Assembly (NCBI GenBank): GCA_027923505.1
Contig: BROI01000006.1
Location: 744,001-808,000 of the forward strand
From: Mayamaea pseudoterrestris
Lineage: Eukaryota
DNA: 64,000 nucleotides
Direction: 5' to 3'
The position numbers and the translations under genes were made by a program. Under the pieces are notes generated by a model. It worked only from the letters and a program-made list of their open reading frames with translations, ran no database searches and was not told the DNA's origin. Of the stretch, positions 26,376 through 55,085 are shown one piece after another. How positions within the stretch are numbered: the first letter of the stretch is position 1; each line of letters begins with the position of its first letter.

Positions 26376-29300
26376 TTAAATGCCACCTTGAGTGCAGCAT
26401 GAGCATTGCATCTTGCCAAGGTCAACCTCAAATGTTGCGAGATTGCCTGCAAACATGAGATCGCACATGGCATCAACATCGCCGCTCATGTCATTGTTGA
26501 AAAGTGTAACTTGGCGCAGTTTGGATGTTTTACCTGCAAAATCAGTGGCAAATTCTGATGCTGGAAATGTGCCAGTCAGCTGATTGTTGTGTAAAAGCAG
26601 CTCTTCAATCTTGGGCGCATTAATGTCAGCCGGAACTGTGCCTGTCAGTCGATTGCCATCCAAATGTAATCGTTGCCAGTCAAGCTTGCCAAAGTCACTG
26701 GGTATGGATCCAGAGATATCATTGTTCTCCAAGAAAAGTGTGCGGAGATTGGGCTCAGTTAAAGGAACATTATTGGGAATTGTGCCTGTGAAAAAGTTGT
26801 ATGCCATATCGAGGTAGACCATATCTTCGAACTGCCACATGAAGTCAGGAATCGTGCCTTTAAACAGGTTAAAGGATAGCGAAAAAGTGTCAAGCTCCGA
26901 TAATTTCACAAAGTCTGATGGTATTGTACCTGACAATAAATTGTCGGAGAGTGTGATCTCCCAAAGTGTGGACAGCATTGAGATTTCAGGTGGGAGAGTG
27001 CCTCTCATCTGTTGACCATAGTTTCGTATTATCTGGTACTCTTCAAAGCGGCCACATGGGTCGACTCCAATCATAGTGTACCAATCGCATTCATGGAGGT
27101 CGGAGACCCATAAATCTCCCTCCAACCAATTGTCACCATTGAATTCGCAGTACATTAAGGCCATTGCAAAGCGCTGTCGAATTCGCTCGACCTGGAACTC
27201 CATTATATCTTTTCCGGTTCGAAGCCATTCCCTTGCCCAATTCTGACAGGTACCGGGAATATTAATCAGATCCCTTGTTTGTGGAGGCAAAGCAGGATCA
27301 ATAGCACCCATGATGTAACCACATTCAGCACTTTGTACACAAGGCAGAGAAGGTGGGATTGGGAGGTTTGGAAGAGTGTGAGGGGTGTTTGATATCGGAG
27401 CAGCCGGATTAAAGCCTAGCATCGGTGGTGTGCCCCCAGCCGGCGGAGGCACTGCAATGCTTGATGCGCCCATGTAAGTTACGGCAGCCACCAGCGGCAA
27501 GCTAAGCCAAATTGGCAAAACAATCCCTTTTGGAGCTTCCTTTTCTTCTTCTTCTGGCTCGTTGTATATGTCTTCCGGAATTGACATTGGCCTAGGCCCA
27601 GCTCCGGTGTCATCTTCTTCGTCGGGGTTTGATGCCCAAGGGGCGGATGGATTCTCCACGTCAGGACTACCCACCGGGTAGATTGGCTTGCTGCTTGTGA
27701 AATCAAAGTCATCATAAGTTTCTGGGGATGTCTTTGGCATTGATCCTGCCGGAGGCTTGGGCTTAGTGCTTGTGAATTCAAAGTCATTGTAAGTCTCAGG
27801 CCGATCTTGATGTTCAGCCCTTGGTTCTGAACGGCCTGAGGCTGGTTTATTGCTACTGAACTCAAAAATATCATGCGTCTCCGGCGCCTTCTTGGGTGGT
27901 GGTGGGCCACGCCTCCAGTCCCATCCAGGATAGTCCTCATCGTCAACAACCGGTTTTGTATTAGGTTTTGGTTTTTCACTCACGTATTCAAAACTAGCGT
28001 GCTGCGGTCGACTGCGGTTCCAGTCCCATTCCGGAGACTTATCTGAGGTATTATCATCATGCCGAGGCCTTGGTGGCAGCCCTTCTTGGGGGCCCGTTGG
28101 ACCAAATCCTACCGGTGCAAGTTCTTCATCTGCAGGGACGGCTCGCTGCCTGTTCCAGTCCATGTCAGGTTCATCGTCAAAAACGTCATTCTTCCCAGGT
28201 CTTGAAGGGGTAGTACCCTGTGGGCCGAACGGCCCACTGAACGGAGAAGGCTCTCCAGTTCCAGGTGTTGGCCTATTACGATTCCAGTCCCATGCGGGCA
28301 ATCCATCCGTCTCGTCACCACCAGGGATATGCCTTGGAAGTCCTTCATTTGGGCTTAGTATACCTTGGGTGTCAGGTGGCACTTCGTTACCTGGAATGGG
28401 TCTATTGCGGTTCCAGTCCCAAGCAGGGGAGGCTTCAGGAACTTCAGTTGCCTTTTTTGGATGGTAGTTGGAAGCCTGAGGCACTAGCTGCCCCTGTGGT
28501 TTTGGGCCCAAAGCATCAGGAATATCTGCACCCTTGTTTCTAAGCCAGTCCAAAACTTTTTCAACGTCTTCGGGTCTAGAATCGTCTGGAGGAAAAGCGC
28601 TCGCTGATGAAGAACCAATAATTGGAGGTTTGATAGCGCCAGGAACCTCTTCTTCAACAGAAGGCGCATTAGGATTCCTCATCCATTCAAGAGCTTCTTC
28701 CATTGCCTTCTTCTTATTGGCTGGTGACAGTTGACGCGGCAGTGGAACACCAGCAATGTTCGCTAGAGCCTCCAGTGCCGGTTCGTCGATCTCGTCAGGA
28801 TTTGGTTCGTGGCCTCTTAACCAGTCAAGAGCATTATCAACTGCAGCCTTCTTCTCGTCAGCATTCAAACTACCTCTTGGGGGAGGCACCCCCGCCAAAT
28901 TCAACAAATTATTAAGTGTTGGCTCATCAATTTCATGCGCTGGACCTTTGCGCCTCAGCCAGTCCAAAGAGTCATCTAGCACATTTGTTTTGTCTTCTGG
29001 CGTCAGCTGGCGAGGCAGTGGAACGCCAGCAAGATTGGCAAATGCTTGAACTGTGTCTTCATCCACATCATCTACTTGTGGATTATTGTTTCGAAGCCAA
29101 TCCATTACTGCGTCAAGAGCTTCTTTTAGTTCTGTGGGTGGGATATGGCTGGGAAGAGGCAATCCCGGGACATTGACAATGTCTGCTGGTTGATGAATGT
29201 GACCACTCAAAATAGGTGTCTGAGATCGACGCGCCCAATCAAGTTCTGGTTCAGCCAGCGGTTTCTTGGGAAGATTAACGCCGGCAGTTTTAACGAGGGC

Positions 29301-32300
29301 TTGGAGCGAAGGCTCATCTAACTCTTCAATAGACTTTGGTGTTGGAGGATGCTTGCGTAGCCAGTCAACTGAATCGCTCAAAACTTGTTTCTTTTGGTCA
29401 TCGTCAATTGGGCATTTTGGTAATGAAATCCCTGCCATGTTTGCAAAGGCCCTTAATGAGGGTTCGTCGACATCATTGGGTATGGGATTGTTCTTTCGCA
29501 ACCAATTCACAGCATCATCCACAGCCTCCTTCCTACTGGTCGGTGTTCGTGGCAACGGAATACCAGCCAAATTAGCAAGTGACAGCAATGTAGTTTCATC
29601 AACATTATCCACCAAAGGGTGGTTGGTTCTTATCCAGTTCATTGCATCCTCCACTATCAGTGGTTTTTCACAGCTGAGAATTTCACGTGGTGTTGGAGTA
29701 CCAGCAAGATTCATGAGTGCACTCATTGTTGGTTCTGTTACTTCAACAGCACTGGGAGAAAGGCTCCGAATCCAGTTCACAGTATCTTCAAAGGGCTTCT
29801 GAAACTCTGGTGAAAGATGACTCCTTGGGAGCGGAACACCAGCAAGATTGGCCAGCGCCCGAAGAGTTGGCTCATCTACATCATCTAAATTGGGAGTATT
29901 GCCTCTAAGCCAGTTCATTGCGTCATCAACAGAAGATTGTTGCCCTGATGGGGGTGTTGTCCTGGGCGTTGGAATTCCGGCAAGGTTCATCAGTGCACTC
30001 ATTGTTGGTTCGGTTAATTCACCTGCATTGGGTGGATGGCTTCGAATCCAATCCACAGTGTCATCAAGGGGCTTCTGAAACTCTGGCAAAAGGCGACTCC
30101 TTGGAAGAGCGACACCAGCAATGTTGGCCAGTGCTCGAAGGGTTGGCTCATCCACATCACCTAATGTCGGAGTATTTTCCCTAATCCATTTCAATGCATC
30201 ATGTAGCAAAGGTCCTTGCTCTGATGAGGGAACTGTCCTAGGGGTTGGAATTCTGGCAAGATTAGCCAATGCATCCAGGGTTGGTTTGTCTATGTCATTT
30301 TCAGACGGAGGATTGTTTCTGAGCCATTCCAACGTGTCATTGAGAGGCTTCTGGTGCTCAAATGATAACTGTTTGCAAGGCAATGGAACACCAGCTAGAT
30401 TGGCAAGTGCGCGGAGGGTTGGCTCATCCACATTTTCTGGTTTGGGATTGTTTGACCTTATCCAGTTAATTGCTGTATCTAAAACATGAGACTTTTGTGT
30501 CAGAGATACATCACGTGGAGATGGAATTCCAGCTAAGTTAGCAAGAGCATCCAAAGTAGGCTTGTCTAACTCATTCACCAATGGAGGATGGCTGCGAAGC
30601 CAATCTACACAATCATTCAGAGCATTCTGCTGCTCATGAGAAAGTGGACAGTGGGGAATTGGGACACCCGCTAAATTAGCGAGCGCACGTAGAGTAGGCT
30701 CATCAATATCTTTTGGATCTGGCTTGTTGCTTCTAATCCAGTTCCAGGCTTTATCCACCACTTGGGGTTGCTCAGATGTGGGAATGGATCGAGGTGTAGG
30801 AACTCCTGCTAGGTTGGCTAATGCCTCTATGGTTGGCTCATCAAGCTCACCAGGCTTAAAGCTTTGATTTCGGAGCCATTCGGTGGTGTCACTCAAAATT
30901 CCAGCCTGGTCTGGAGTCAAAGTAGATCTTGGGAGTGGCACACCTGCTAGATTTGCAAGAGCTCGAAGTGTAGGCTGATCAATCTCCTGTGGTTTTGGAT
31001 TGTTGCTCCGCAGCCAATTAATGACTTTCTCTATAAGCATTGGCTGCTGGGACTTGGGAATTTCTCGTGGTGTTGGAATCCCAGCAAGATTTGCCAAAGC
31101 GTCCAATGTGGGTTCATCAATATCTGCTGCAGTAGGGGCACTACTGCGCAGCCACTCTGTTGTTTCATTCAAGATGTTGATCTGTTCTGGGGTCAGGGGA
31201 CTACGTGGAAGTGGAACACCTGCCAAGTTAGCAAGTGCTTGTAGTGTTGGCACATCAACCTTTGCTGGATCAGGTTGGTTATCCCGAAGCCATGTCATAG
31301 CTTGGTCCAATATACCAGGTTTTTGTGACATGGGAACAGTTTTTGGTATTGGAATTCCTGCTAAATTGGCCAATGCTTTCAAAGTAGGTTCATTAATCTG
31401 ATCTGCTGCAGGATTGTGGCCACGGAGCCATTCTATGGTAGTTTCAAGGACTGCAATTTGCTCCTCTGACATTGGACTGCATGGCAAGGGAACTCCTGCA
31501 AGATTGGCAAGTGCACGGAGGGTTGGCTCATCCACATTTTCTGGTTTGGGATTGTTTGACTGTATCCAGTTCAAAGCAGTATCTATAACTTGTGGCTTTT
31601 CAGATTTAGGTATATGGCGTTGTGATGGAATTCCAGCTAGGTTGGCTAGTGCATCAAGGGTTGGCTGGTCATGGAGTTTTTCCAAGGGCTTGTGATTGCG
31701 CAACCATTCTGTTGCACTGTTCAGCACAGCCTCCTGCGCTGGTGTAAGTGGCATCCGTGGAAGTGGTATGCCAGCCAAATTGGCAAGTGCTCGAAGGGTT
31801 GGCTCATCTACTTCCTTGGGGTCTGGGTGGTGGTTGCGTACCCAATTCATTGCATCATCAACAATCTTTCCAACCTTGGATTCTGGAATCTGCCGGGGTG
31901 TTGGCACTCCAGCAAGGTTTGCCAAAGCTTCCAAAGCAGGACCACCAAGTTCATGTGCCTTAGGTTTGTTATTTCGCAGCCACTCAGTAGTGGCATCCAA
32001 AGTGCTAATCTGCTCTGGTGTCAGTTGGCTTTGCGGTAGTGGTACTCCAGCAAGATTGGCCAAAGCACAAAGTGTTGGCTCATCCACATTTTCTGGTACA
32101 GGATTGTTGCTTCTCACCCAATTCATAGCATCATCTACGACCTTGGTCTTCTGTGACTTGTGAATTGCACGAGGTGTTGGAATTCCTGCTAGATTAGCCA
32201 GTGCTTCCACAGCAAGCTCATCAAGCTCATCTTCAGCAGGCTTGTGGCTACGTAGCCACTCAGTTGCTACAGCAAGCACATTCTCCTGCTCTGGTGAAAG

Positions 32301-35300: not shown

Positions 35301-38300
35301 GGCTTGCTGCAGAGCACCAATTTTTTGGTCCATTGGCAGCAATTGTGATGGCATTGGGACCCCTGCAAGGTTGCACAGGGCAAATCCAGTAGGCTCATCA
35401 CATGTAGGTATAACTTCAGAATTACGTAGCCAGTCCAAAGCTTTATTGAGTGCAGTCTCCTTGACTTCAGGTGAATGATCAGCTAATGGTTGGCTAGCAA
35501 GCTTGGCTAGAGTCTTTGTTGTAGGCTCATCAATGCCATCATAATCAATCTTTTTGCTGCGAATCCAGTCAACACAGTCACTAATAGCCTTCGTCTTCTC
35601 TTTCTGTGTGAGAGGCTGACGTGGCAATGGAATACCTGCAAGACTTGCGAGAGCTTCCAGAGTTGGTGCATTGACTCTACCAGGATCCGGGTTATTATTC
35701 CGAATCCATTGCAGTGAATTATAGAATGCCTTTTCCTTTTCTGGCAATGTCTGCATCTTGGGCATTGGTATTCCGGCAAGGTTGCACAAAGCATTTAATA
35801 TTGGTTCATTCACATCATCCAATTCCAAATTATTCTGACGAATCCAATTAACTGCATTTTTTAGCACCACTTCAGAGTTTGTTGTTGTTTTATGAGACAG
35901 TGGGATCCCAGTTATATTGCGGAGTGCATTCAGGGCCAAATCATCAACAGCATCTTGGCTAGGAGTATTGTTTCGCAACCAGTTGAAACAATCATCAAGT
36001 GCTGCTTGCTGATTCACATCGAGTTGTCTTCGAGGCAACGGTACACCAGCTAGATTTGCCAATGCTTGGAGGCTGGGTATATCAACATTAGTTGGGCTGG
36101 GATCATTGCTACGCAACCAAGTCAAACAATCCTCCACAAGCTCCTTCTGGTCAATGGGTGAAAGCTGATCTTGTGGCAATGGAATTCCAGCCAAATTAGC
36201 CAAAGCCTGTAGGGTTGGCTTATCCATGTCAGCCCCTCTTGGCTCATTGTGGCGGATCCATTTGACAATGTCATTCAAGGCCATATGTTGGTCTGGTGCA
36301 ATACTGGTGCATGGCATAGGGACACCTGCAAGGTTAGCAAGAGCTTGAAGTGATGGCTCGTCTATGACTCCAGGCATGGGGTCATTACTGCGGAGCCAGT
36401 CAAGTGCATTTCCTAAAACTTTGGGTTTGTCCTTTGGTTTAATCCGTTCCTTTGGCACTGGAATACCAGACAAAGTGGCAAGTGCCTCAAGCATTGGCTC
36501 AGTCACATCACCAGGAGCAATTTCATGGGTTCGAATCCATTCAAGAGTGTCATCCAAAGCACCCTTTTGTAAAGCTGTCAGTGGCTTTCGAGGTATAGGC
36601 ACTCCAGCCAAGGTTGCAAGTGAATGCAGGGTGGTTTCATCAACACTTGCCGGGTTTGGATCATTGTTGCGGAGCCAACTCAAGGCATGCTCAAGAATCT
36701 TAGGCTTGCTTTTTGGTGTTATGTGCTCCCGTGGCATGGGAATACCAGCCAAAGTAGCAAGTGCATCCACCACTCCTTCATCCAAGTCACTTGGCTTTAT
36801 TTCACTATTACGCACCCAGTCAACCATATCCTGCAAAGCCTCTGATTGCTCTGATGACAATTGATGACTAGGCATTGGTATGCCAGCAAGTGTAGCAAGG
36901 GACAACAAGGTTGTTTCATCAACATCTTGAGGTTTCAAATTATTCTTGCGCAGCCATGTCAATGACTCATCCAAAATCTGAGGCTTGTCTTTTGCAGGGA
37001 TCCTCCTTGCTGGCACAGGAACCCCCGCAATGCTGGCTAGTGCTCGAAGCACAGGCTCACCCACATCCTCAGGCTTGATGTTGGTGTTGCGGATCCAGTT
37101 CAATGCCTTGTCCAAGGATTCCCGCTGCGCAGATGTCAAAGATTCTTTGGGAACAGGTACACCTGCAAGATTTGACAGTGCTTGGAGTGTTGGAGTATCC
37201 ACCAATTCTGGGTTGGGGGAGTTATTACGCAGCCACTTTAAGGCATTCTCCACAATAGTTGTCTTGTCTTTGGGTAATGTCTTGGCCACTGGTAAAGGAA
37301 TGCCAGCCACATTTGCTAGCGCCAGCAATGCAGGCTGGTCAAGGTCTGCAGGATGGGGCCTGTTGTTACGAAGCCAGTCAACAGACTTATCAAGTGCATC
37401 CATCTGGTCCTTGGCAAGTCTACCTTTTGGTAATGGGAGACCAGCAAGTGTGGCCAGTGATTGCAGAGTTGGTGCATCCACCGCTATAGGATTAGGGTCA
37501 TTGTTTCGCAGCCACTCAACAGCGTTGGCAATGATCTTTGGTTTGTCCTTTGATTGAACCTTGATTGGTAGAGGTATGCCAGCTAAATTTGCCATCGCCT
37601 GCATTGTTGCTTCATCAATATCATCTGGTACAAGGTTATTGTTACGGATCCAGTTCAATGACTTACTTAAAACTTCCTGCTTTGCAGAGGTGAAATTGAC
37701 TGGCATTGGCAAGCCAGCCAGCTCCGCAAGTGGGTGCAATGATCCTTCATCAATGCCTTCAAGCTCAGGATCTTGATTTCGTAACCAGTTTATAGCATTT
37801 TCAGCAACAATATCATTGTCCATTGCATTAATGCTATGAGTCATGGGTATCCCAGATAAGTTGGCCAGTGCTTGCATTGTTGGCTTGTCCAACTCATCTG
37901 GGTGTACTCCCGTGTTGCGAAGCCATTCTACGGTATCATTGAGTGCCTCTTCTTGTTTTGGAGAGATAAGTCTTCTAGGACATGGGAGACCTGCAAGATT
38001 AGCCAGTGAGTGCAAAGTAAACTCCTCTATAGCCTCAAGCTTTGGATCATTGCTACGCAACCAAGTCAAACAATCCTCCACAAGCTCTTTTTGGTCAATG
38101 GGTGAAAGCTGATCTTGTGGCAATGGAATTCCAGCCAAATTAGCCAAAGCCTGTAGGGTTGGCTTATCCATGTCTGCCCCTCTTGGCTCATTGTGGCGGA
38201 TCCATTTGACAATGTCATTCAAGGCCATCTGTTGGTCTGGTGCAATACTGGTGCATGGCATAGGGACACCTGCAAGGTTAGCAAGAGCTTGAAGTGATGG

Positions 38301-50300: not shown

Positions 50301-53300
50301 TACTCCGCTGTATCTACTCAAAGACGGATCATCATTGCTCACGCCTGCATAGTCTTTACTACGAAGTCTTTGAAGTGCCTTCTCCATGTCCCCGTCTAAC
50401 TTTGTGTGACCTTTAAAATCGGCAATGGGTGCTTGGAACGATACCATTGAGGCATCATCGACATGCGGGAGAGTGCCTGATGAGCGCATCCAAGCCAAAG
50501 CGTCTGACATTGCTTTGGCTCTCTTCTGTTCGCTACTAAGCTGGTCAGTTGGCGCGACGGACACGTCATCCACTCCAATTGCAGCGCCACCCTGAAGCCA
50601 CTTCACTGCATTTGCAACATCATTCGGCATCTTATCAAGCTTAGTCCCCCCAGCTGACTTGAATGAAGCAAGCGAAGCATCATCTGCAGATGATTTTATC
50701 CAATTTAGCGCATCAGCCATTGTTTTTGCGCGCTTCTGTTCCTCAGTCAGCGGCCGAACGGCCACGCTGCGATTGGAGGCTACCGAAGCATCATCGAGTT
50801 CCCCTGTCTTCTGAATGTCTGTTCCTCTGAGCCAATTCAGAGCTTGTGCCATGTCACTACGGGGAGTAGGATCATCGATCGAACGGAAAGAAAGAACTGA
50901 TGCATCGTCGACAGGTCCTGAATCGCCAGGAACATTATTTCCTTTCAACCAATTCAACGCATCTGACATATCACGAGATCGCCTCTGCTCATCATTGAGC
51001 TCAGGGTCGGCACGAGTTCCTCTGCTAGCGAATGAATCGTCGTCAAATCCAGGCATCTTGGGAACCCCCCCACGTAGCCAGTCCAAAGCATCTGCCGTAC
51101 CACCAGCACCTCGCCCAACTTTACTACCTCCAATGGACTTAAACGATGACGCAATGGAGATGTTGTCGGTATCGTTCGCATCAGCATTACCAGGGTTTCG
51201 CATCCACGCAAGAGCGTCAGCCATTTCCTTCGCCCTTAACTCTTCCGTAGACGGGCGCGCAAAGTCCCCGGCAATTTGCGATCGGCCGATTGACGAAAGG
51301 TCGTCCAGATCATCGAACCCTTTCAAGTTAGATTCGCGTCTTATCCAATCCAAACCCGAGACCATGTCAGCTTGGCGCAATGCACCTGGTGCTCCAAGAC
51401 CTAATGACTTGAAAGACGCGACGGATGGATCATCAAGCACCAGAGCAGCATCATTTGATCGCAACCAGCTTAAAGCGTTCTGCATTTCAGAAGCACGTAA
51501 TTCTTCTTCCGTCTTGGGAAGTATACCGGCTGCTTTAGCTCTTTTGAATGATGTTCCCACAGAGACGTCATCGAGTCCACGGTCAATATCTATCTCTCGG
51601 TGTCTGATGAAGTTCAACGCGTTTTCCATCGTGCCTATAATGTCGGCTTGATCCTTGTCCCTAGCACCTGGTACAATTGCCTCGATTTTCTGCATCGTCA
51701 TTACTGACATCTCGTCTAGATCAGGATCGTCATAGTTGAGATCGTTGTTACGGAGCCATCCAAGAGCATCCTCCATCTCCTTGACTCGCTTTTCCTCTTC
51801 AGTCAAGGTATCGTTAAATGTAAGTGCACGAGGAATCTGCAGGACCCCACGCTTTGAGTCAGCGACCGAATACTCGTCGATCGCTCGAGAATCCTTCCCT
51901 CGAAGCCAATTTAACGCATTAGTAATCTCATTGGCTTCGTCGATAGCCCCTTGAGGAACCTTTCCTTCATGTACGACATGGTCAAGCCATTTGAAAGCCG
52001 ACTTAAGCTTGCGATCGAGCGTGTCAGCTTCATCAGGAACGACAAGTCCGTTCCGAACAGCAAAAATGCGACCTACATCCGTCCACCACTTTAAAAGGGG
52101 CTTCAGCTCGGCAAATTTTGCATACAAATTATCCAGTTCAGAAGGAATGGGGTCCTCCTGCTTCGGCACTCTCGTCCACCAAGTAGCAGTCGCCTTCACC
52201 TTTTCGAGCTTGCCCTTGTCCGACTTCGGGAGCATAACTTTCGGCTGTGGTGGCCCCTGGAACCAGCTCATGATGTCTTTCATGTTCGCATCAAGTTCAG
52301 AGACCATTTCATCATTAGCATTCGGTCCACGCGTCCATGCCAACACATCAATCTCTTTTTCCGATCCTTTCCAGCTATTGACGATTTGGGCCAAATCCAA
52401 AAGAAGGTCAAGCTTGGATCTATCAACGCTGGAGAGCTTATCTGGATTGCATACGAACTGAGCATTTCGCCACCACTGCAATGCTTCAGACAACTCCTTA
52501 CACATGCTCTTCGTTTCTTTTGCTGACTGTGGGCGACGTCCGGGAGCCCAAAGAGAGAACAACCGATCAAGTAATTCGGCGCGAGCTGGATCATCAACAT
52601 CCAAACCCTTACTGCGATTACGACCCCATAACAGCAGCTCCTCCATGGTTATGACAGCTTCCTTCGCTTGCTTGGGGTCGAGTGCTCGGAAATTGCTCCA
52701 AAACTGAGCAAGATCTTTAGCTTTTTGCATCATTTCCTCTTCGGTAATCGCTTCTGCACTGACATCCTTGCCATTCTTGCTGAACCATCTTAATTGTGCT
52801 TCCAAGGCTCTAGCTTGTTCGAGTGACTCAGCTCGATTAATGTCCGCGAGACAGAAGTTTAAATTACCGGCAGCTCTCAGTTCAGTAGGATCCGCCATCC
52901 AGGCAAGCGCATCACTGACATTCTGAGCATAAAACATAAACTCTCCAGCTTGCTTCCGAGCTTTCTCGACGTCAAATGATCTCCCATCTCGTTCATACCA
53001 AGAGAACGCATCCAACATCTCATGTGCGTATATTTTTGCGTCACCCGCGCTGATATCACCGTACTGCTTCGTTCGGCGCCATTCCAATAGCGACTCCAGC
53101 ACATTCTTCATGGCCGTTTCCGTTTTAGGATCCTTGAGCTTAGGCATGTCGACCAACCTTACATGACTCCCCATTCTGTCCCAATCGCTGAGCGCATCAG
53201 CCACAGTTTTAATCGAGGTTGGGTTCCGCATGAATGCCATCAGATCGTTATCACTTGCCGTGCAAAACTGCGAAAAAATATGCTTGAGTTTATCCACTAC

Positions 53301-55085
53301 AAACTCATCCATGGGTTGAAACTTGTCAAAATCTTTAATCTCTTCCCACCGAATAAGTGCCTGTCCAAGTTCCTTTGCGTCAACAATGGCGGACGCCTTA
53401 CTCAATTTCGGTGCTGAGCCTTTACACTGCCACTCAATCATTGCTTGCTTAAGTTTCATGAACTTTGCCTGATCTTCGTCGTTAAAGTCATCCGGATTAA
53501 ATTTTCCAGCGCCATTCTTCAGCCACCATCTGAGGCACTTTTCCAGCTCTTTCCCGGCAACATCATCGGTCCCGAAATTCCAATCAGTCATAACGGCCTG
53601 GAGCTTTTTAAATCGATCCAAATCATCAGGACTGGCTAACGTTTCATCGAAATTCGCACCATGCTGACGCCACCAACCGATCAACCCTTCCAATTCCTCC
53701 ATGACCGCTTCAGACTGCTGCGGTGTCATGATTCCTTTGACGTTGATAGCGAGGGTTTTTATGCGACGAAACGCTTCGAGCTCGAACATGTCCATGTCAG
53801 CTTCATCGGTCGTCAAATTACGCTGCCAAAAGCTGCAGGCGTCACGAATCTCCTTCATAACAAATTCAAATCCGTCAGAAGTTACTGGTATGTCCTTGAT
53901 CTGCCAGTCTACAAACATTTGCTTGGCCTTGCGAAACATCGTAGCATCTTCAAAACTTGCACTATCCGCATCGAACATCATTCCCACGCAGTTCTTTTTC
54001 CACCAATCCGCAATCTCATATAGTTCGAGTCTCAAGCTTTCCGGATTTGTGTTATTCAAGCTAATCAAGACTAGTCCATGCTTGAATTTCTTAAACGGGT
54101 CGGTACTAATGATATTGTCCGCCGATATGCTGCGGTCACCATCCTTCGAAGTGTATCGAAAGGCGTTGAGCTGCGCCTCCAATTCCTTAGCAAGTTTCTC
54201 AGCTTTCTTGGGATCCTGGCCCGGTTCAAATTTGTATTGGATCGGCAGACTATGGGTCTGAAACCAATCAAACAAATTATTCACCTTCTTCATCTTGAGG
54301 ATGTTCGTTTCAAGAGCTGCAACATCTTCCTCGTAGGTGTGGTAATTTTCCTTCCACCACTTCAGGCTCGCGAGCATCATTTCCACAAGTTTGTCAGTGC
54401 TGTCAGACTTGTGCTTGCACCTCTGGAAAAACTTGCGAAGCTTGCCAGCTCGCTTCGCGTCGTCGTTGGATTTGTAAATGCGTCCAGAATCTGACCACCA
54501 CTGGACAATCTTCTGGAGTTCTTCGGCCGACTGCTCGAGCCCAGCCGCGTTCGAATGATTGTACTTTTGCAAAGTCGACGTCCACCAGTAAAGTGCCGAT
54601 TGCATCTTTCTAGTCCGTTCCATGGCTTCCTTGCTGCGCTCCGTCAAACCCGAGCCAAGCGCTTCGTATGTCAACTTGCGGTCTCTCAACGTACTCATAA
54701 TGTCAAACTTTTTAATGTCGACTGGCAAGAACTCGTCGTCATTGTTTAAGTCAATCAGATCCGGATCGTCGTCGTCCTCAAACTTGACAGTGGCGACAGC
54801 ACTCATATCATCCGCCTGGACCGTCGCTACACCCTTCTTGATCCAATCCAATGCCGACGCCATTTGACCCGCCAGTTGCAAAGCATCATCGGCGTTTTGC
54901 TCCGCCGCGAGTACTGACTTCATCGTCTTGGCCTTTGGAGGCCCAGTCGGTTTGCCTAGCGGTTTGGGCTTGGGTTTCTTCTTCTTCTTTCCGGCAACGG
55001 AGGCTCGACTCTCCAAGTCGTCGTGCGCCATCAAAGACTCCTCCTCATTGCTAGTCGTACCTCCGCCAAATCCAAAGAATGACAT
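26376..55085 (-). CDS. Giant (9,569 aa) single-pass membrane protein: ~46-aa tandem-repeat array, Pro-rich linker, TM helix and C-terminal diatom-type LRR (L-domain-like) ectodomain
   Basis: Uninterrupted 28.7-kb ORF with no signal peptide. One hydrophobic stretch IVLPIWLSLPLVAAVTYMGA (~27450-27530). LRR cap (AREWL...RIRQRFAMALMY...W....W....HECDWY...GV..C), plant-type LRRs (L..L.LS.N.L.GTIP) and a terminal CSCC. Confidence 0.9.
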   Translation of the reverse strand: MSFFGFGGGTTSNEEESLMAHDDLESRASVAGKKKKKPKPKPLGKPTGPPKAKTMKSVLAAEQNADDALQLAGQMASALDWIKKGVATVQADDMSAVATVKFEDDDDPDLIDLNNDDEFLPVDIKKFDIMSTLRDRKLTYEALGSGLTERSKEAMERTRKMQSALYWWTSTLQKYNHSNAAGLEQSAEELQKIVQWWSDSGRIYKSNDDAKRAGKLRKFFQRCKHKSDSTDKLVEMMLASLKWWKENYHTYEEDVAALETNILKMKKVNNLFDWFQTHSLPIQYKFEPGQDPKKAEKLAKELEAQLNAFRYTSKDGDRSISADNIISTDPFKKFKHGLVLISLNNTNPESLRLELYEIADWWKKNCVGMMFDADSASFEDATMFRKAKQMFVDWQIKDIPVTSDGFEFVMKEIRDACSFWQRNLTTDEADMDMFELEAFRRIKTLAINVKGIMTPQQSEAVMEELEGLIGWWRQHGANFDETLASPDDLDRFKKLQAVMTDWNFGTDDVAGKELEKCLRWWLKNGAGKFNPDDFNDEDQAKFMKLKQAMIEWQCKGSAPKLSKASAIVDAKELGQALIRWEEIKDFDKFQPMDEFVVDKLKHIFSQFCTASDNDLMAFMRNPTSIKTVADALSDWDRMGSHVRLVDMPKLKDPKTETAMKNVLESLLEWRRTKQYGDISAGDAKIYAHEMLDAFSWYERDGRSFDVEKARKQAGEFMFYAQNVSDALAWMADPTELRAAGNLNFCLADINRAESLEQARALEAQLRWFSKNGKDVSAEAITEEEMMQKAKDLAQFWSNFRALDPKQAKEAVITMEELLLWGRNRSKGLDVDDPARAELLDRLFSLWAPGRRPQSAKETKSMCKELSEALQWWRNAQFVCNPDKLSSVDRSKLDLLLDLAQIVNSWKGSEKEIDVLAWTRGPNANDEMVSELDANMKDIMSWFQGPPQPKVMLPKSDKGKLEKVKATATWWTRVPKQEDPIPSELDNLYAKFAELKPLLKWWTDVGRIFAVRNGLVVPDEADTLDRKLKSAFKWLDHVVHEGKVPQGAIDEANEITNALNWLRGKDSRAIDEYSVADSKRGVLQIPRALTFNDTLTEEEKRVKEMEDALGWLRNNDLNYDDPDLDEMSVMTMQKIEAIVPGARDKDQADIIGTMENALNFIRHREIDIDRGLDDVSVGTSFKRAKAAGILPKTEEELRASEMQNALSWLRSNDAALVLDDPSVASFKSLGLGAPGALRQADMVSGLDWIRRESNLKGFDDLDDLSSIGRSQIAGDFARPSTEELRAKEMADALAWMRNPGNADANDTDNISIASSFKSIGGSKVGRGAGGTADALDWLRGGVPKMPGFDDDSFASRGTRADPELNDEQRRSRDMSDALNWLKGNNVPGDSGPVDDASVLSFRSIDDPTPRSDMAQALNWLRGTDIQKTGELDDASVASNRSVAVRPLTEEQKRAKTMADALNWIKSSADDASLASFKSAGGTKLDKMPNDVANAVKWLQGGAAIGVDDVSVAPTDQLSSEQKRAKAMSDALAWMRSSGTLPHVDDASMVSFQAPIADFKGHTKLDGDMEKALQRLRSKDYAGVSNDDPSLSRYSGVASAPLTDEQRRAKAMAIALRKLRGGGSVDDVLDFADNSEMGLANSQVESALNWLRENRPNLDDLDDETINAFRNLAGLPVVRGEIRKDDKAKVMDDALLWLRQHEVHFDDVNDDVLLKLAELAGMDVPIRGPATLGGKEKAFQSAADWLRNNKARYGDVDDDTFYALADLAGIELPKGIISKDAQQAAFDEALTWLRRNTIETENLGEIDVHTLESLTKFAGIGMPQPRISADDRRAVLINTLSWLRNKNALSFGVVDDEMLDAFVELTGVQAPVGTLSLDEKAEVMEEVVSWLRKNTPAEADLNDDIIAALVRLPLSATEIPQVDPTSEMSSQAVVNASLDWLRSAKLRGEDLDDSAVEALAYLAGIKMPVGHIPRASKLQIADDAIKWLRNNNVQIGDVNEPSLKGLADLAGVSMPQRRLSPTEKQTLLNASVSWLRNNCLKAGDLTTTEIGALANISGIPVNATFMNLTAKNKVIQDVLSWIRNQKALESRDLDDRSMRALASLAGISVPRGELEVRQKQQIIDDSINWLRRNVPSSATLDDATARVLANLTSRSLKSMLSKAATEKIALGALQWLRNGNNPNFDDIDDMSTQEIVNLAGISCQIGALTPESKKEVLNRAVSWLRKNNLPPYEDLSDSTLHALANLGSSPILYPPLPSAAKKRVIESATCWLRNYEPSDTAVVDDDAIRALATLAGMPVPIGNLLPDAKLKRIDDVVSWLRQNTPTVACFSESMILALANLTGITMPQGCLTPATKKSLVDAAMDWIRNNNDLRANCMTDDDIIALSHLANLTPMKGVITVEEKRQSLNESLVWLRNNKALPTDLSEPEVYALANLVGLSMHLLTAPHSSKQKLMDDALAWIRNTDDIPTDIDDDNLRHLCNVAGVSLASTIKPQDKTRAIEMAWNWLRSNDPPKAACDDSTLDALLNVTQITAPVASLPLSIKGKLAVDALDWIRNRDSLAVASIDDHSVRKLAKLAGVPVSQGRLEPQEKSKLLKDSIRWLRINNLPHEKLDDPTLMALVNVTGVAVPTFALPASVKLDLSERALLWIRNHGVPCTDKVEDDSVRDLASLAGVSVPAGCRLTPKDKSAALDEAINWLRKNDTPRDAVDDHTLSALLSVTSLPIPACKISLSTKKRIIKTSMDWLRNNSPRAVDTDEETIRQLSNICGIYVPTGKLGLKEQQERLDCAIVWLRNNFFSPENLDDPETLALANIAGIPMPGMPLCNAAKRQVISEAVNWLRNNTLPLDSVDDNMLTMLANLAGISVPSKLSPEKKSSVLDASYAWLRNNDPKTQDIDELMLESLANLANISLPGVELSLAAKEKLCEESWDWLRVKGTNPDDLDDASIIHLANLAGISMVSGKLGPAARRDILEKSMNWLRNNRLKAHDLEDPVIHALVNASVAYPRRGLLSRPALEATAEDALNWLRNNSPLPIEMDADILMQLSILAGLSLPNGPHTPGKQKELIEQFVLWTRQCKPCVADLADPILSALCNIAGVEVPLSKSALAKKQAADAALDWIRNNDVNMGDFDEPSLVCLANVAGISFPRRKMNQKKKKEILDQTIDWLRSSTPSTDILSDEGLKALANLGGIPVTGLLPSDTKRQVTDDAVLWLRNNTLVTDELAESDVRTLCNVAGMPLPLGKLTPKMKNQALDDAVNWIRKNGLVSSIIDDPDVYALAQIVGIVMPHSRFALTPTTKIAQEALNWLRINTPSHKNIDDASIRILASISGISIPYGKIDTAKKAKALDDVVSWLRCNGLSDENITDPVATALTNLAGFPLPPGSLSPTDRERVTLDILHWTRNADVKASDFDTPSLSALSTLANVSAPQGNMTTRQKMCIFDHVINWLRNSDLEEVDIDGPTLCALANVAQVDLPLPLSSLAKREAIDKAVSWLRQNTPNASTLDVGELTCLANLAGVPMAPSNLTLSEKTAIVEECILWLRRNDPAPAIISDALLQSLANVAGIPMPSGYSPPPNKTVEDAVEWIRNNSPPKIENFHDSDLRVLANVASVHAPRGTIPPHIKKTILDKCWDWLRDNDIAARSLSDPCIVEALSKVTHGDTPRGFPKTAKNAADDALNWLRSNRPSADEVDEPALEVLATFAGLTLPSRQLLPDERKRLLGDTVDWLRNNDIYADQLSDPVIESLVNLAGMTLPLGTPVTASPTRTKEVAIDWLRNNMPRVEDVDEGTLRPLAKMAGIAVPCGLLPAEAKKDLLKETVKWVRQNNPLPRDLDAPEIIQSLVNISEASVPEGYDKAPKVLTEESLQWLRNNEPSATDIDDDTLIELCNLAGIPLPYTRVSAEKKQQVIEEAVEWLRHNDAPKDDLSDDAIQSIANIAGMPMPHNYVSTSNMAAQEALEWIRNNKPPEAGTLDATTLKTLSNVVHLKLPRGTLPAGKRNELLDQTWKWLRNNEPTPKNLKDPAFVSALVSVAGLSLPRGSAKSPKAIGEDAINWLRSNEPVLGNVEIPVLQKIANLAGVSMPTHSSAKEQEAVADMLNWLRSNGDSISYVDEAFVEALANVAGIPIPTGRIPKSERPQVLRDALEWLRNNSPDAAHVDASSLKTLAKLAGIELPKASLSLEQKRALDDALTWLRNNEPNFAEMDLPTIQSLATLAGMPMLKYSSPGGGGTTIIEDSLNWLRNNTIDHDDVDLDTLNSLANLAGIPLPQAELTDAQRKMFPDLLKWLRTNNVQPDDVDDETLGAFANLAGLFVPRVIARDECGPLVLDDCLDWIRSHDPNFDALDFPTFHSLLNLAGTPLPHQKLTPEQEKAFDDTLEWYRNSSITTSDVDEPSLVALAGLAGLALPEDRAARDVNKPIILDQALTWLRNNDPSPADLNEATLRTLANLAGVPVPQRKLSPDERTALEDAVEWIRSSSIKPINVSDDALHALANVAGLSLPMKRLPPEVRSKVLESALEWLRNNEPQTNQMNLPVLRAIANCAGQTIPNGNLNFEQKLSLEETLEWLRNHDPHPDKVNNEALKALASLSGLALPCGDIMPHQKSGVLEASIKWLRNNDPDPIAVDAPMLQSLATLAGLPIKKGRLAKDQMDALDKSVDWLRNNKPHPADLDQPALLALANVAGIPLPVAKTLPKDKTTIVENALNWLRNNSPNPELVDTPTLQALSNLAGVPVPKESLTSAQRESLDKALNWIRNTNIKPEDVGEPVLRALASIAGVPVPARRISAKDKPQILDESLTWLRKNNLKPQDVDETTLLSLATLAGIPMPSHQLSSEQSEALQDIVDWVRNSEIKPSDLDEAVLDALATLAGIPMPREHITPKSKPKILEHALSWLRNNDPNPATVDETTLQSLATLAGVPIPQKPLTALQKGALDDTLEWIRTHEIAPGDVTEPMLEALATLSGIPVPKEQVRLKEKSKFLESAFDWLRSNSPDPDDVDEAVLLPLATLAGIAVPHKKLSPCEKKAFEDSLTWLRTNTILSESVDPGSLDTLASLAGIPIPTCSAYPDKASTVNQSLEWLRNNDPHPRIVDLPLIAPLANLAGIPFPENKDRSASVDISPKTQTMDQHQGPQSKIVDFQDVKRLASLAGLPMPTSNFTPAKQEVLSKSLNWIRNNDLVPDDIDEATMQAMANLAGIPLPIKVQSKDKQKIIANAVEWLRHNDPNPIALDAPTLQSLATLAGLPIPKGSLAKDQMDALDKSVDWLRNNKPHPADLDQPALLALANVAGIPLPVAKTLPKDKTTIVENALNWLRNNSPNPELVDTPTLQALSNLAGVPVPKESLTSAQRESLDKAVNWIRNTNIKPEDVGKPVLRALASIVGVPVPARKILAKDKPQILDESLTWLRKNNLKPHDVDETTLLSLATLAGIPMPSHQLSLEQSEALQDMVDWVRNNEIKPSDLDEAELDALATLAGIPMPREHITPKSKPKILGHALSWLRNNDPNPATVDETTLQSLATLAGVPIPQKPLTALQKGALDDTLEWIRTHEIAPGDVTEPMLEALATLSGIPVPKERIKPKDKPKVLGNALDWLRSNVPMPGVIDEPSLQALANLAGVPMPCTSIAPDQQMALNDIVKWIRHNEPRGADMDKPTLQALANLAGIPLPQDQLSPIDQKELVEDCLTWLRSNDPKLEAIEEFTLHSLANLAGLPCPRRLISPKQEEALNDTVEWLRNTGVHPDELDKPTMQALANLSGIPMTHSINAMDNDIVAENAINWLRNQDPELEGIDEGSLHPLAELAGLPMPVNFTSAKQEVLSKSLNWIRNNNLVPDDIDEATMQAMANLAGIPLPIKVQSKDKPKIIANAVEWLRNNDPNPIAVDAPTLQSLATLAGLPLPKGRLAKDQMDALDKSVDWLRNNRPHPADLDQPALLALANVAGIPLPVAKTLPKDKTTIVENALKWLRNNSPNPELVDTPTLQALSNLAGVPVPKESLTSAQRESLDKALNWIRNTNIKPEDVGEPVLRALASIAGVPVPARRIPAKDKPQILDESLTWLRKNNLKPQDVDETTLLSLATLAGIPMPSHQLSSEQSEALQDMVDWVRNSEIKPSDLDEGVVDALATLAGIPMPREHITPKSKPKILEHALSWLRNNDPNPASVDETTLHSLATLAGVPIPRKPLTALQKGALDDTLEWIRTHEIAPGDVTEPMLEALATLSGIPVPKERIKPKDKPKVLGNALDWLRSNDPMPGVIDEPSLQALANLAGVPMPCTSIAPDQHMALNDIVKWIRHNEPRGADMDKPTLQALANLAGIPLPQDQLSPIDQKELVEDCLTWLRSNDPSPTNVDIPSLQALANLAGVPLPRRQLDVNQQAALDDCFNWLRNNTPSQDAVDDLALNALRNITGIPLSHKTTTNSEVVLKNAVNWIRQNNLELDDVNEPILNALCNLAGIPMPKMQTLPEKEKAFYNSLQWIRNNNPDPGRVNAPTLEALASLAGIPLPRQPLTQKEKTKAISDCVDWIRSKKIDYDGIDEPTTKTLAKLASQPLADHSPEVKETALNKALDWLRNSEVIPTCDEPTGFALCNLAGVPMPSQLLPMDQKIGALQQATNWLRTHQPTGNNLDQSTAEALANLAGIPTPRYFHENEKPKMLDNAINWIRHNDPKPEKLDDPTLKILANLAGLPVPRKVMSQEELDVLDEAITWLRNHQPTEQYLEEPVLEALTNLAGIPSARHVPKSEQPQLLEDFMNWIRQNKPDPDDVDEPALRAMANLAGIPLPRSRLSPEQENVLAVATEWLRSHKPAEDELDELAVEALANLAGIPTPRAIHKSQKTKVVDDAMNWVRSNNPVPENVDEPTLCALANLAGVPLPQSQLTPEQISTLDATTEWLRNNKPKAHELGDPALEALANLAGVPTPRQIPGSKVGKIVDDAMNWVRNHHPDPKEVDEPTLRALANLAGIPLPRMPLTPAQEAVLNSATEWLRNHKPLEKLHDQPTLDALANLAGIPSQRHIPKSEKPQVIDAALNWIRSNNPKPENVDEPTLRALANLAGVPLPCSPMSEEQIAVLETTIEWLRGHNPAADQINEPTLKALANLAGIPIPKTVPMSQKPGILDQAMTWLRDNQPDPAKVDVPTLQALANLAGVPLPRSPLTPEQINILNETTEWLRSSAPTAADIDEPTLDALANLAGIPTPREIPKSQQPMLIEKVINWLRSNNPKPQEIDQPTLRALANLAGVPLPRSTLTPDQAGILSDTTEWLRNQSFKPGELDEPTIEALANLAGVPTPRSIPTSEQPQVVDKAWNWIRSNKPDPKDIDEPTLRALANLAGVPIPHCPLSHEQQNALNDCVDWLRSHPPLVNELDKPTLDAIANLAGVPSPRHIPLPDWPNVVDSAVNWLRQNEPNPNLADGPNLQALANLAGVPLPRQMLTHEQQLVLDDAIEWLRTHVPKDNEIDEPTAEALANLAELPTRRHIPTSQKAKILDEAMNWIRHNDPKPKNIDTPSLQALANLAGIPVPRKVMSQEELDVLDEAITWLRNHQPTEQYLDEPVLEALTNLAGIPSARHVPKSEQPQLLEDFMNWIRQNKPDPDDVDEPALRAMANLAGIPLPRSRLSPEQENVLAVATEWLRSHKPAEDELDELAVEALANLAGIPTPRAIHKSQKTKVVDDAMNWVRSNNPVPENVDEPTLCALANLAGVPLPQSQLTPEQISTLDATTEWLRNNKPKAHELGGPALEALANLAGVPTPRQIPESKVGKIVDDAMNWVRNHHPDPKEVDEPTLRALANLAGIPLPRMPLTPAQEAVLNSATEWLRNHKPLEKLHDQPTLDALANLAGIPSQRHIPKSEKPQVIDTALNWIQSNNPKPENVDEPTLRALANLAGVPLPCSPMSEEQIAVLETTIEWLRGHNPAADQINEPTLKALANLAGIPIPKTVPMSQKPGILDQAMTWLRDNQPDPAKVDVPTLQALANLAGVPLPRSPLTPEQINILNETTEWLRSSAPTAADIDEPTLDALANLAGIPTPREIPKSQQPMLIEKVINWLRSNNPKPQEIDQPTLRALANLAGVPLPRSTLTPDQAGILSDTTEWLRNQSFKPGELDEPTIEALANLAGVPTPRSIPTSEQPQVVDKAWNWIRSNKPDPKDIDEPTLRALANLAGVPIPHCPLSHEQQNALNDCVDWLRSHPPLVNELDKPTLDALANLAGIPSPRDVSLTQKSHVLDTAINWIRSNNPKPENVDEPTLRALANLAGVPLPCKQLSFEHQKPLNDTLEWLRNNPPSENDIDKPTLDALANLARIPTPRTVPSSEQGPLLHDALKWIRENTPTLGDVDEPTLRALANIAGVALPRSRLLPEFQKPLDDTVDWIRSHPPNAGELTEPTMSALMNLAGIPTPRTTPPSGQQSSVDDAMNWLRGNTPNLDDVDEPTLRALANLAGVPLPRSHLSPEFQKPFEDTVNWIRSLSPSAVEVTEPTMSALMNLAGTPTPREILSCEKPLIVEDAMNWIRTNHPLVDNVDETTLLSLANLAGIPLPRTPTSRKEAVDDAVNWLRKNNPIPNDVDEPSLRAFANMAGISLPKCPIDDDQKKQVLSDSVDWLRKHPPTPKSIEELDEPSLQALVKTAGVNLPKKPLAEPELDWARRSQTPILSGHIHQPADIVNVPGLPLPSHIPPTELKEALDAVMDWLRNNNPQVDDVDEDTVQAFANLAGVPLPRQLTPEDKTNVLDDSLDWLRRKGPAHEIDEPTLNNLLNLAGVPPPRGSLNADEKKAAVDNALDWLRGHEPNPDEIDEPALEALANIAGVPLPRQLSPANKKKAMEEALEWMRNPNAPSVEEEVPGAIKPPIIGSSSASAFPPDDSRPEDVEKVLDWLRNKGADIPDALGPKPQGQLVPQASNYHPKKATEVPEASPAWDWNRNRPIPGNEVPPDTQGILSPNEGLPRHIPGGDETDGLPAWDWNRNRPTPGTGEPSPFSGPFGPQGTTPSRPGKNDVFDDEPDMDWNRQRAVPADEELAPVGFGPTGPQEGLPPRPRHDDNTSDKSPEWDWNRSRPQHASFEYVSEKPKPNTKPVVDDEDYPGWDWRRGPPPPKKAPETHDIFEFSSNKPASGRSEPRAEHQDRPETYNDFEFTSTKPKPPAGSMPKTSPETYDDFDFTSSKPIYPVGSPDVENPSAPWASNPDEEDDTGAGPRPMSIPEDIYNEPEEEEKEAPKGIVLPIWLSLPLVAAVTYMGASSIAVPPPAGGTPPMLGFNPAAPISNTPHTLPNLPIPPSLPCVQSAECGYIMGAIDPALPPQTRDLINIPGTCQNWAREWLRTGKDIMEFQVERIRQRFAMALMYCEFNGDNWLEGDLWVSDLHECDWYTMIGVDPCGRFEEYQIIRNYGQQMRGTLPPEISMLSTLWEITLSDNLLSGTIPSDFVKLSELDTFSLSFNLFKGTIPDFMWQFEDMVYLDMAYNFFTGTIPNNVPLTEPNLRTLFLENNDISGSIPSDFGKLDWQRLHLDGNRLTGTVPADINAPKIEELLLHNNQLTGTFPASEFATDFAGKTSKLRQVTLFNNDMSGDVDAMCDLMFAGNLATFEVDLGKMQCSCCTQGGI
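30546..35080 (-). repeat. Near-identical internal duplication, period 2,484 bp (~2.05 kb matched: 30546-32596 vs 33030-35080)
   Basis: For example gcatccaaagtaggcttgtc at 30547 and 33031, and ttacgaggtactggta at 32581 and 35065. Antisense ORFs also repeat at 31000 and 33484. Confidence 0.93.
36100..41266 (-). repeat. Near-identical internal duplications with periods 1,944 bp (36100-37720 vs 38044-39667) and 1,806 bp (38398-39460 vs 40204-41266); a ~1.06-kb core is present three times
   Basis: gatcattgctacgcaacc at 36101 and 38045, actggaataccagac at 38401 and 40207, cgcagccact at 39451 and 41257. Confidence 0.92.

Follow-up and report, generated by a model that had tools for sequence, protein, structure and literature searches.

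A predicted megadalton membrane protein of a diatom that joins about 150 two-helix repeats to a leucine-rich repeat ectodomain

What would a diatom do with a single protein of more than a megadalton? The question is raised by a gene of Mayamaea pseudoterrestris that lies in a stretch of 64,000 nucleotides (contig BROI01000006.1 of assembly GCA_027923505.1, forward-strand positions 744,001 to 808,000; "the window" below, to which all coordinates refer). An earlier note, drawn from the letters of the window, had described here an intronless membrane protein of about 1 MDa in which a giant array of a novel repeat is joined to a leucine-rich repeat (LRR) domain. The answer that we favour, giving it slightly less than an even chance, is that the product is a type-II single-pass membrane protein of a diatom-wide orthogroup and serves in the cytosol as a tether or spacer of great length, which can be tuned. 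The features of the gene and of four relatives are collected in Table 1.

Table 1. Coordinates of the giant gene, its parts and adjoining features, followed by the open frames of four relatives found at other loci. CDS, coding sequence; UTR, untranslated region; aa, amino acids; nt, nucleotides; X3 and X5, sequencing runs used in the read check.
Feature	Residues	Position	Strand	Description
Complete CDS		26376..55085	minus	9,569 codons plus stop; ORF scan and upstream in-frame stop
Head	1-1050	51936..55085	minus	helices anchored on 38 Trp (WW..N/G type)
Transition zone	1051-1640	50166..51935	minus	about 10 degenerate units
Canonical array	1641-8806	28668..50165	minus	152-155 units of 46/47 aa
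18-unit duplication, copy 1		33025..35188	minus	2.17 kb, 98.2% identical to 30541-32704
18-unit duplication, copy 2		30541..32704	minus	
Zone of three related 13/14-unit blocks		36100..41266	minus	1.1-1.6 kb, 95.4-96.9% identical
Post-array segment	8807-9187	27525..28667	minus	17.9% Pro; conserved in orthologous tails
Predicted membrane helix	9188-9212	27450..27524	minus	IVLPIWLSLPLVAAVTYMGASSIAV; Kyte-Doolittle maximum 1.84
Predicted extracytosolic domain	9213-9569	26379..27449	minus	Pfam LRR families and Cys conservation
5'-UTR intron 1		55384..55512	minus	129 nt, GTGCGT..CTGTAG; X3 contig joins 55383 to 55513
5'-UTR intron 2		55258..55357	minus	100 nt, GTACGT..CCACAG; X3 and X5 contigs join 55257 to 55358
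22-nt tandem repeat		55843..56014	.	8 copies, 90% matches
Relative L004				open frame of at least 3,756 aa, at least 44 canonical units; open to 5' end of available DNA (10-kb flank limit)
Relative L009				open frame of at least 3,753 aa, 43 canonical units; open to 5' end of available DNA
Relative L005				open frame of at least 2,987 aa, at least 28 canonical units; reaches contig end
Relative L002				open frame of at least 1,639 aa, at least 13 canonical units; open to contig 5' end

A six-frame scan with translation gives one coding exon of 28.7 kb, 9,569 codons long, which runs on the minus strand from an ATG to its sole stop codon at 26376-26378 in a window that holds no N. The single ORF (open reading frame) of the earlier note is thus borne out, and the computed mass of 1,052.7 kDa (pI 4.94) agrees with the size it had estimated. 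An in-frame stop lies 5 codons 5' of the ATG. The N-terminal residues, MSFFGFGGG...ALMAHD, recur at the start of a relative, P0004, and the start is therefore judged sound.

Between residues 1060 and 8847 the protein carries 165 units anchored on W-[LIVMTY]-[RQK], spaced most often by 46 residues (82 times) or 47 (49 times) and less often by 48 (11 times) or 45 (6 times). A hidden Markov model (HMM) built for the unit recognizes, at i-E<1e-3, 155 units in residues 1641-8800, one in the degenerate zone before them, and none in the head or in a shuffled copy; 152 units span at least 31 of the 46 model positions. These counts confirm the roughly 150 units of about 46 residues reported earlier. 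The consensus, D(D/E)VDEPTLxALANLAG(I/V)PLPRxx(L/I)xPx(E/D)(K/Q)xx(V/A/I)L(D/E)DALNWLRNNxPxP, contains both of the motifs that had been picked out then (LD.A.NWLRNN and DEPTL.ALANLAG.P.P) and consists of an 11-residue helix EPTLxALANLAG, a Pro-rich loop IPLPRxxLxP and a helix of 16-17 residues, ..LDDALNWLRNN. Every one of 149 units has the Trp, and 148 of them have the Arg of W-x-R. The conserved columns (L, A, L, A, L, A, G, P, P, L, W, L, R and N, with D-E-P) are mostly hydrophobic-core and helix-capping residues. The array is acidic throughout, with a mean net charge of -1.7 per unit and -260 in total.

AlphaFold models were made of three units, cut between units (117 alignment rows; mean pLDDT 91.0, no residue below 70; pTM 0.60), and of six units (59 rows; mean pLDDT 69.1; pTM 0.45). 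In both, each unit has a three-residue turn, a helix of about 11 residues, an extended loop of about 10 and a helix of 16-17 (assigned by DSSP in the three-unit model), as the two-helix unit of the earlier note had implied. Foldseek found no match in the PDB at E<=0.001 with either model, and a search of the ESM Atlas with six units gave no usable match. An exhaustive structure search with VIA placed LEM domains at the top for both models, with Z 4.7-5.6 and rmsd 1.9-2.9 A over 42-51 residues. The emerin LEM domain 7ndy_G scored Z 5.6 with the six-unit and Z 4.8 with the three-unit model (rmsd 1.9 A over 42 of 42 residues in both), emerin 2odc_I scored 5.1 and 4.8, and the LAP2 LEM domain 4.0 and 4.7. 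Next came the Rho N-terminal domain (Z 4.5 and 3.8), the SLX4 SAP domain (3.2 and 3.5), further SAP domains and the C-terminal domain of CDNF, all of them helix-extended-loop-helix modules. In such searches Z below 8 can mean merely a common arrangement; because all the values lie below that level, we do not file the unit as a LEM domain, and describe the modelled unit as LEM- or HeH-like in fold, without sequence relation.

The sequence searches found no such relation. LEM (PF03020), SAP and HeH are absent from the complete Pfam lists (E<=1) of three array segments, from the 25 most frequent of the 83 Pfam families found over 59 six-unit segments, and from the 11 PDB sequences returned at E<=10 by a profile search. 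On the repeat Pfam yields only summed sub-threshold scraps, most often the last helix of UBA_7, with no single stretch that passes, and none of the 11 PDB rows has a significant single stretch, the best being a designed armadillo protein at a summed E of 0.007. There is likewise no Pfam sequence match on the repeat to ankyrin, TPR, HEAT, PPR or spectrin, the classes from which the earlier note had set it apart. The novelty claimed for the repeat therefore stands for its sequence; its modelled fold may resemble that of LEM and other helix-extended-loop-helix domains.

Behind the array, residues 9188-9212 form the one strong hydrophobic segment found by Kyte-Doolittle hydropathy; weaker windows (1.53-1.66) lie within array units at residues 2614-2618, 4669, 5271 and 5919. 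Translation and hydropathy reveal no hydrophobic stretch at the N-terminus. Both observations accord with the single transmembrane (TM) helix and the lack of a signal peptide first proposed. After the helix come, in order, a Pro-rich stalk, a Cys-containing N-cap, plant-type LRRs (xLxGxIP, with xLxGx(I/V/F)P motifs present) and a Cys cap that ends C.CC, the last residues of the protein being CSCCTQGGI. Within residues 8800-9569, three Pfam families exceed their curated cut-offs, as expected for the C-terminal LRR domain: LRR_1 (1.5e-15; 54.4 bits, cut-off 20.6), LRR_8 (4.2e-07; 30.1 bits, cut-off 27) and LRR_4 (2.2e-06; 28.2 bits, cut-off 27). No other part of the protein is as well conserved among 16 aligned tails as the region of the N-cap, residues 9276-9365 (26991-27260). 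Its sequence, ..GTCQNWAREWLRTGKDIMEF..RIRQRF.MAL.YCEFNGDNW..HECDWY..GVDPC.., includes an E-W-L-R motif of its own.

Lack of an N-terminal hydrophobic stretch, one strong helix and Cys-capped LRRs make up the predicted layout of a type-II LRR protein of the plant-specific type. The N-terminal part of 9,187 residues could not plausibly be translocated, the domain behind the helix has its ten invariant Cys at cap positions, and an orientation with the N-terminus inside and the C-terminus outside is likely. Short paralogues, P0240 (420 aa, labelled 'type:complete') and P0233 from Amphora, have a short N-terminus, a TM helix, the same type of LRR and the C.CC end, and a preprint describes that same layout for MRM2 homologues, diatom LRR receptor-like proteins of the plant-specific type (10.1101/2024.04.15.589526). 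Such short type-II proteins were the background against which the gene had first been set. The giant shares with them the type of ectodomain and, as predicted, the N-in orientation, and differs in that their intracellular N-termini have about 50 residues and those of the giant orthogroup have thousands.

Both ends of the protein are conserved in the orthogroup. With the 420-residue tail as query, 860 proteins were matched at E<=0.001. Identity among the first 25, over 65-100% of that tail, is 56-90%, compared with about 27-47% for general LRR paralogues. Seven of the ten tail matches that were read are orthologous, with WDWNR and/or F.F..KP motifs, a juxtamembrane block, a hydrophobic helix at the same place and the C.CC end. 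The other three (P0179, P0233 and P0240) are paralogues without the WDWNR and F.F..KP motifs or the juxtamembrane block. The 16-tail alignment has 129 invariant positions out of 470, with 118 among the 330 of the ectodomain, and 10 of 10 Cys are invariant as well. A metagenome scan with the tail found it at 12 environmental loci. At the other end, the head is 38.5% identical to P0155 over residues 1-1080 and 29.5% identical to P0004, and 31 of its 38 Trp are kept across all three proteins. A metagenome scan with the head gave 60 pattern matches and no relative, no head relative of 5,262-16,746 aa was present among 2,921 candidates, and a search for shorter head relatives, in which the best 8,000 candidates were scored, gave one match and missed P0004.

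Between these ends the array varies. The frame of L009 holds head-like sequence, a degenerate zone, an entire array, the WDWNR zone and the tail; because its array is complete, its 43 units can be compared with the 152 here. No colinear unit-to-unit orthology links the two arrays, the best identities being 0.38-0.57 and scattered, which fits a generic structural module better than it fits 155 specialised binding sites. That orthologues keep head and tail across arrays of 43 to 152 units suggests a tether or ruler and is new support for that proposal.

The regions that flank the array differ from it in composition. Helices of the head carry Trp motifs such as ..ALxWWxxN/G..; the head has no Pfam family and, by the unit HMM, no canonical unit. 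Units of the transition zone retain the W-x-R helix (..EEQKRAKEMADALNWLR..) and have their second half swapped for acidic or Ser-rich linkers (DDASVASF), and the unit HMM matches this zone only over the W-helix part. The Pro/Gly-rich segment after the array holds five (W/M)DW(N/R)R motifs and three F(E/D)F(S/T)S.KP motifs, followed by the conserved acidic juxtamembrane block, ..APWAS.PDEEDD.G.GPRPM.IPEDIY.EP..PKG. The WDWNR motif looks like a decayed end of the W-L-R-N-N-x-P helix, and the zone could serve as an array of linear motifs; a likeness of the WDWNR/FEF segment to W-acidic kinesin-light-chain, AP-2 or LIR-type motifs is offered as a remark only. The length of the WDWNR zone varies, from about 380 residues here and about 470 in L009 to about 1,270 in L004 and at least 900 in L006, which shows no canonical unit.

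The array itself records how it may have grown. Unit identity is higher at even than at odd lags over its whole length (0.53 against 0.41 in residues 6400-8200, 0.33 against 0.28 in residues 1640-3000), from which the true period is a two-unit A/B pair, a super-repeat of 92 residues. The most diverged units are N-terminal and the most uniform C-terminal. At a lag of 18 units identity reaches 0.83, in keeping with the 18-unit duplication of Table 1, whose copies differ with dN/dS 0.44. At the DNA level the other in-register duplicates comprise 1.6 kb at 96.9% identity and three blocks of about 1.1 kb at 95.4-96.3%. Since dN/dS between internal duplicates is 0.40-0.45, the blocks have diverged under moderate purifying selection and are no identical echoes of assembly.

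If the protein is indeed a tether or spacer, the hydrophobic helix would act as a signal anchor, the LRR domain would face the outside or the lumen of an organelle and bind a conserved ligand there, and some 9,190 N-terminal residues would stay in the cytosol. With about 2.5-3 nm for each of 155 units, the length of the long helix, the modules would form a chain of about 0.4 um, and the head would bind a partner far off in the cytosol, for example the cytoskeleton or an organelle. Unequal recombination in register would lengthen or shorten the array by 2, 13-14 or 18 units at a time, and so set the reach. A structural chain in which length matters more than the identity of units is preferred because the unit conserves core and caps, units are interchangeable, the ends are conserved around a middle that varies more than three-fold, and changes come as blocks of whole units. 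We consider doubtful a bolder form of the proposal, in which an 'inside-out' LRR receptor of diatoms is coupled to a LEM-like chain of about half a micron that serves as a ruler or mechanical link, and which would make the protein a new class of eukaryotic cell-architecture protein. In that form the chain would join the cell surface or an organelle lumen, for example that of the silica deposition vesicle, to a distant cytosolic structure, with species setting the reach by blocks of units. Links to gliding, to the silica deposition vesicle and to size sensing, all suggested by the earlier note, are speculation.

Several observations weigh against the tether or spacer. The gene model P0008, of 1,448 aa, has 3 canonical units and only the last 120 or so residues of the head, so that, if the model is not truncated, a member of the family may do with hardly any array. 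In the head, neither Pfam nor the ESM Atlas, which gave no usable match, shows a domain recognisable as binding the cytoskeleton or an organelle. The protein is without known partner, localisation or phenotype. With 6 E and 2 K, the 15 residues that precede the helix carry a net negative charge, counter to the positive-inside rule, so that the topology rests on homology, the Cys caps and an N-terminal part too large to translocate; nor does the ectodomain contain an N-x-S/T sequon. Because the models do not fix the geometry of the chain (pTM 0.60 for three units and 0.45 for six), its length is an estimate by inference. The read check spans 41300-57300, and the copy number of the blocks of 95-98% identity at 30541-41266, in the 3' half (26376-41300), is that of the assembly. 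Within the checked part, the contig of run X3 has deletions of 2 nt and 1 nt in the CDS, at 45145 and 49756, at a depth of about 7; these are missing from the deeper contigs of X1 and X2 and are probably assembly errors, though they could be allelic frameshifts.

The last points would also serve the argument that the giant gene is an artefact or is decaying, through a mis-joined assembly, an inflated copy number or a runaway neutral expansion of the repeat. Assembly is difficult where blocks of 1.1-2.2 kb are 95-98% identical, a collection of 15 billion proteins lacks the exact protein (and has dozens of its pieces), and no head-sharing relative above 5,262 aa was found. We nevertheless regard this as very improbable. 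The frame stays open for 28.7 kb without an N, its duplicate blocks differ at both synonymous and non-synonymous sites, and the same architecture recurs in frames of at least 3,750 aa on environmental contigs of independent origin. Five sequencing runs, none recorded as RNA, cover the 5' 10 kb of the gene, and contigs of four were aligned. Those of the DNA-like runs X1 (14,201 nt, 23 differing letters) and X2 (10,513 nt, 19 differing letters) are colinear with the window in the 5' 13 kb of the gene, come from two studies and have every listed indel 5' of the ATG; one of them may be the sample behind the window itself. Contigs that look spliced, described below, count against an artefact as well.

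Binding by the units, in place of reach, would be the purpose of the array if it were a multivalent docking platform, each module or A/B pair holding one copy of the same small partner (a protein, or a cation or polycation drawn by the acidic surface) and the whole nucleating a cortical assembly that the LRR domain positions or triggers. The nearest folds, LEM, SAP, SLX4 SAP and the CDNF C-terminal domain, are small binding modules; the nearly invariant Arg of W-x-R is capable of lying at the surface and, with the frequent Asn-Asn, could form a repeated site; and the uniform acidity and an A/B alternation maintained over the entire array speak for it too. We think this unlikely, though far less so than an artefact, since the most conserved positions are core or capping residues, the number of units varies more than three-fold among orthologues that lack colinear units, no partner is known, and the structural matches stay below Z 8. 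The same LEM matches, top in two independent models, could point to the nuclear envelope or endoplasmic reticulum (ER), with the modules of a LEM/HeH-type protein attached to chromatin or to a lamina-like partner and the LRR domain in the lumen of the ER or the perinuclear space. The LEM proteins emerin and LAP2-beta, for example, are indeed N-in membrane proteins with a C-terminal anchor. Their LEM-type domains, however, usually occur in one or two copies, and normally once per protein, against about 155 here. What the array has in common with emerin, LAP2, Rho-N and SLX4 SAP is the turn-helix-extended loop-helix layout, and binding of BAF or DNA could be proposed by analogy of fold only: neither Pfam nor the PDB profile search gave a LEM, SAP or HeH sequence match, the units are acidic, which argues against DNA binding, DNA-binding HeH and SAP domains being basic, and a nucleoplasmic domain of 1 MDa would be hard to pass to the inner nuclear membrane. 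We give this possibility very little credence. The remaining probability goes to functions other than a tether, a docking platform, a nuclear-envelope protein or an artefact.

Among known giants the nesprins, KASH-domain tethers of the outer nuclear membrane, are comparable in plan: a mostly helical megadalton array of repeats lies in the cytosol and is anchored by one C-terminal membrane helix with the N-terminus inside, as predicted for the giant, which would likewise link a membrane to distant structures of the cytosol. Nesprins are built of three-helix spectrin repeats of about 106 residues, with CH-domain actin-binding heads and a luminal KASH peptide of about 30 residues. The giant has instead 46-residue two-helix units, a head of no known family and an LRR ectodomain of 357 residues. 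Membership of the nesprin/KASH family was rejected: Pfam finds neither a spectrin nor a CH family, and 357 residues of LRR domain with the CSCCTQGGI end follow the TM helix. The Sfi1-type giants of ciliates and yeast resemble the array in their long tandem helices with a conserved Trp followed by a basic residue. The helix of Sfi1 is continuous and basic, with a period of 23-36 residues and the pattern [FL]xxW[KR]. The array has a period of 46/47, helices broken by Pro-rich loops, the pattern W-[LIV]-R and acidic units, and its Trp-bearing helix lies, in the model, within a two-helix module predicted with confidence (pLDDT 91). It thus does not agree with a Sfi1/centrin-binding helix in period, charge or folded state.

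Other repeat and domain types were weighed and not adopted. Armadillo and HEAT proteins have helical units of about 42-47 residues, and the short helix of the array (..EPTLRALANLAG.P) resembles ..ARALANIASGP of designed armadillo proteins. No Arm or HEAT family is present among the Pfam hits shown, however, and Foldseek gives TM-scores (TMq) of about 0.2 to solenoids, among them importin, TOG and designed repeat proteins, though a fold list cannot exclude a fold. UBA_7 is found in 37 of the 59 six-unit segments, where only the last helix matches (profile positions 30-45 of 48), and no UBA domain is among the structural-match lists. Pfam rows such as DUF2388, FANCD2OS and DUF2552 are summed scraps on the repeat, in which no single stretch passes.

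The repeat reaches beyond the orthogroup. A profile of the double unit, searched against 1.84 billion representatives, matched 395 proteins at E<=0.001, of which 208 reach <=1e-10 and 60 reach <=1e-30. They are mostly short fragments (median 137 aa in the retrieved set). All named sources are diatoms, and one bacterial repeat protein, P0087, looks like a false positive. P0129 has the MMETSP taxon id 37318, Pseudo-nitzschia pungens; P0102 bears the label 'jgi/Psemu1', which we take to be Pseudo-nitzschia multiseries, and several fragments come from the source 'merc', presumably an assembly of ocean metatranscriptomes. A second class of W-x-R repeats, with units of 43-45 aa, is found in P0019, P0021, P0102 and P0129, in which ..RTPEQR.KDLDD.L.WIRN.. 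alternates with ..SPEDRA.EIE.AL.W.RN..; the C-terminal end of P0129 has the same kind of PE..W.R....PG.P motifs. Because the units of P0019 and P0021 prove homologous to the giant's (hhalign probability 96.6%, E 5.4e-10 over 39 columns), we propose a wider superfamily of diatom W-x-R repeats, as yet without a public name, with units of 43-47 aa that end ..AL.W(L/I)R... P0001, a protein of 2,270 aa from an 87-kb contig, combines 22 canonical units with a Lys-rich, coiled-coil-like N-terminus and a different C-terminus (..P.W....LRK..), and has neither TM helix nor LRR. From its architecture the repeat would be a movable module that also occurs in other contexts.

The giant gene looks transcribed, because the X3 and X5 contigs, which we read as transcript-like assemblies, carry canonical GT..AG joints on its strand in the 5' UTR. 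The two introns are separated by a mini-exon of 26 nt (55358-55383), and the joints are seen in X3 and X5 only, X1 and X2 being without them. The shorter side of each joint is the 26 letters of this mini-exon, which falls under a 31-letter rule for bridging. No joint was found inside the CDS between 41300 and 55085 in the aligned contigs of the four runs. 'Intronless' therefore holds for that part of the CDS and fails for the 5' UTR. Array fragments of relatives, too, stem from transcriptome-derived sources with MMETSP names. X3 and X5 have no cover in the bin 55718-56251 of the upstream spacer, an observation not used as evidence. The tandem repeat in that spacer, for which periods 10 and 44 score as well, is flanked by the giant gene on one side and a divergent PPR gene (56501-59611) on the other.

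The 3' end of the giant gene converges on a BEACH-domain gene in two plus-strand ORFs, 15714-21578 and 22172-24346, with PH_BEACH at the end of the first and the Beach domain in the second. A trigger-factor-like gene is likewise in two ORFs on the minus strand, 12021-12959 and 12988-13983, with Trigger_N and FKBP_C in one and then Trigger_C. Both are presumably split by short introns. The earlier statement that the other genes of the genome are mostly intron-split applies, among the neighbours, to these and to a PP2C gene in pieces; the PPR gene, Maf1 and others are single ORFs. Along 26000-56000 the GC skew of the plus strand goes from about +0.1 at 30-34 kb to about -0.2 at 52-54 kb, and mirrors the differing amino-acid make-up of array and head.

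Relatives that bear a name are called 'hypothetical protein'. A full-text literature search found no description of the protein or the repeat; Schulze et al. 2015, on LRR proteins of Phaeodactylum, lay outside that search and may list related genes. The accessible portions of PMC5485032 and PMC11573180 contain nothing on the giant protein or its repeat. The repeat family, the head and their combination with an LRR domain appear to be undescribed, while the type of ectodomain and the idea of giant repeat tethers are already known.

Diatoms place their frustule, raphe, plastids and nucleus with micrometre precision, and very few linkers from membrane to cytoplasm are known in them. The orthogroup offers a conserved and experimentally tractable candidate, with constrained ends and a module that folds confidently in silico. 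It also provides a natural length series, from 43 units in L009 (and at least 44, 28 and 13 in three incomplete relatives) to about 152 here. The undescribed superfamily, with some 400 cluster representatives that are mostly unnamed fragments, extends the range of helical repeat types, and the absence of the full protein from a collection that has its pieces illustrates how such genes end up in fragments in gene catalogues. Should the tether or ruler be real, changing the number of units should shift a measurable distance in the cell, which would be a rare direct test of a molecular ruler outside muscle.

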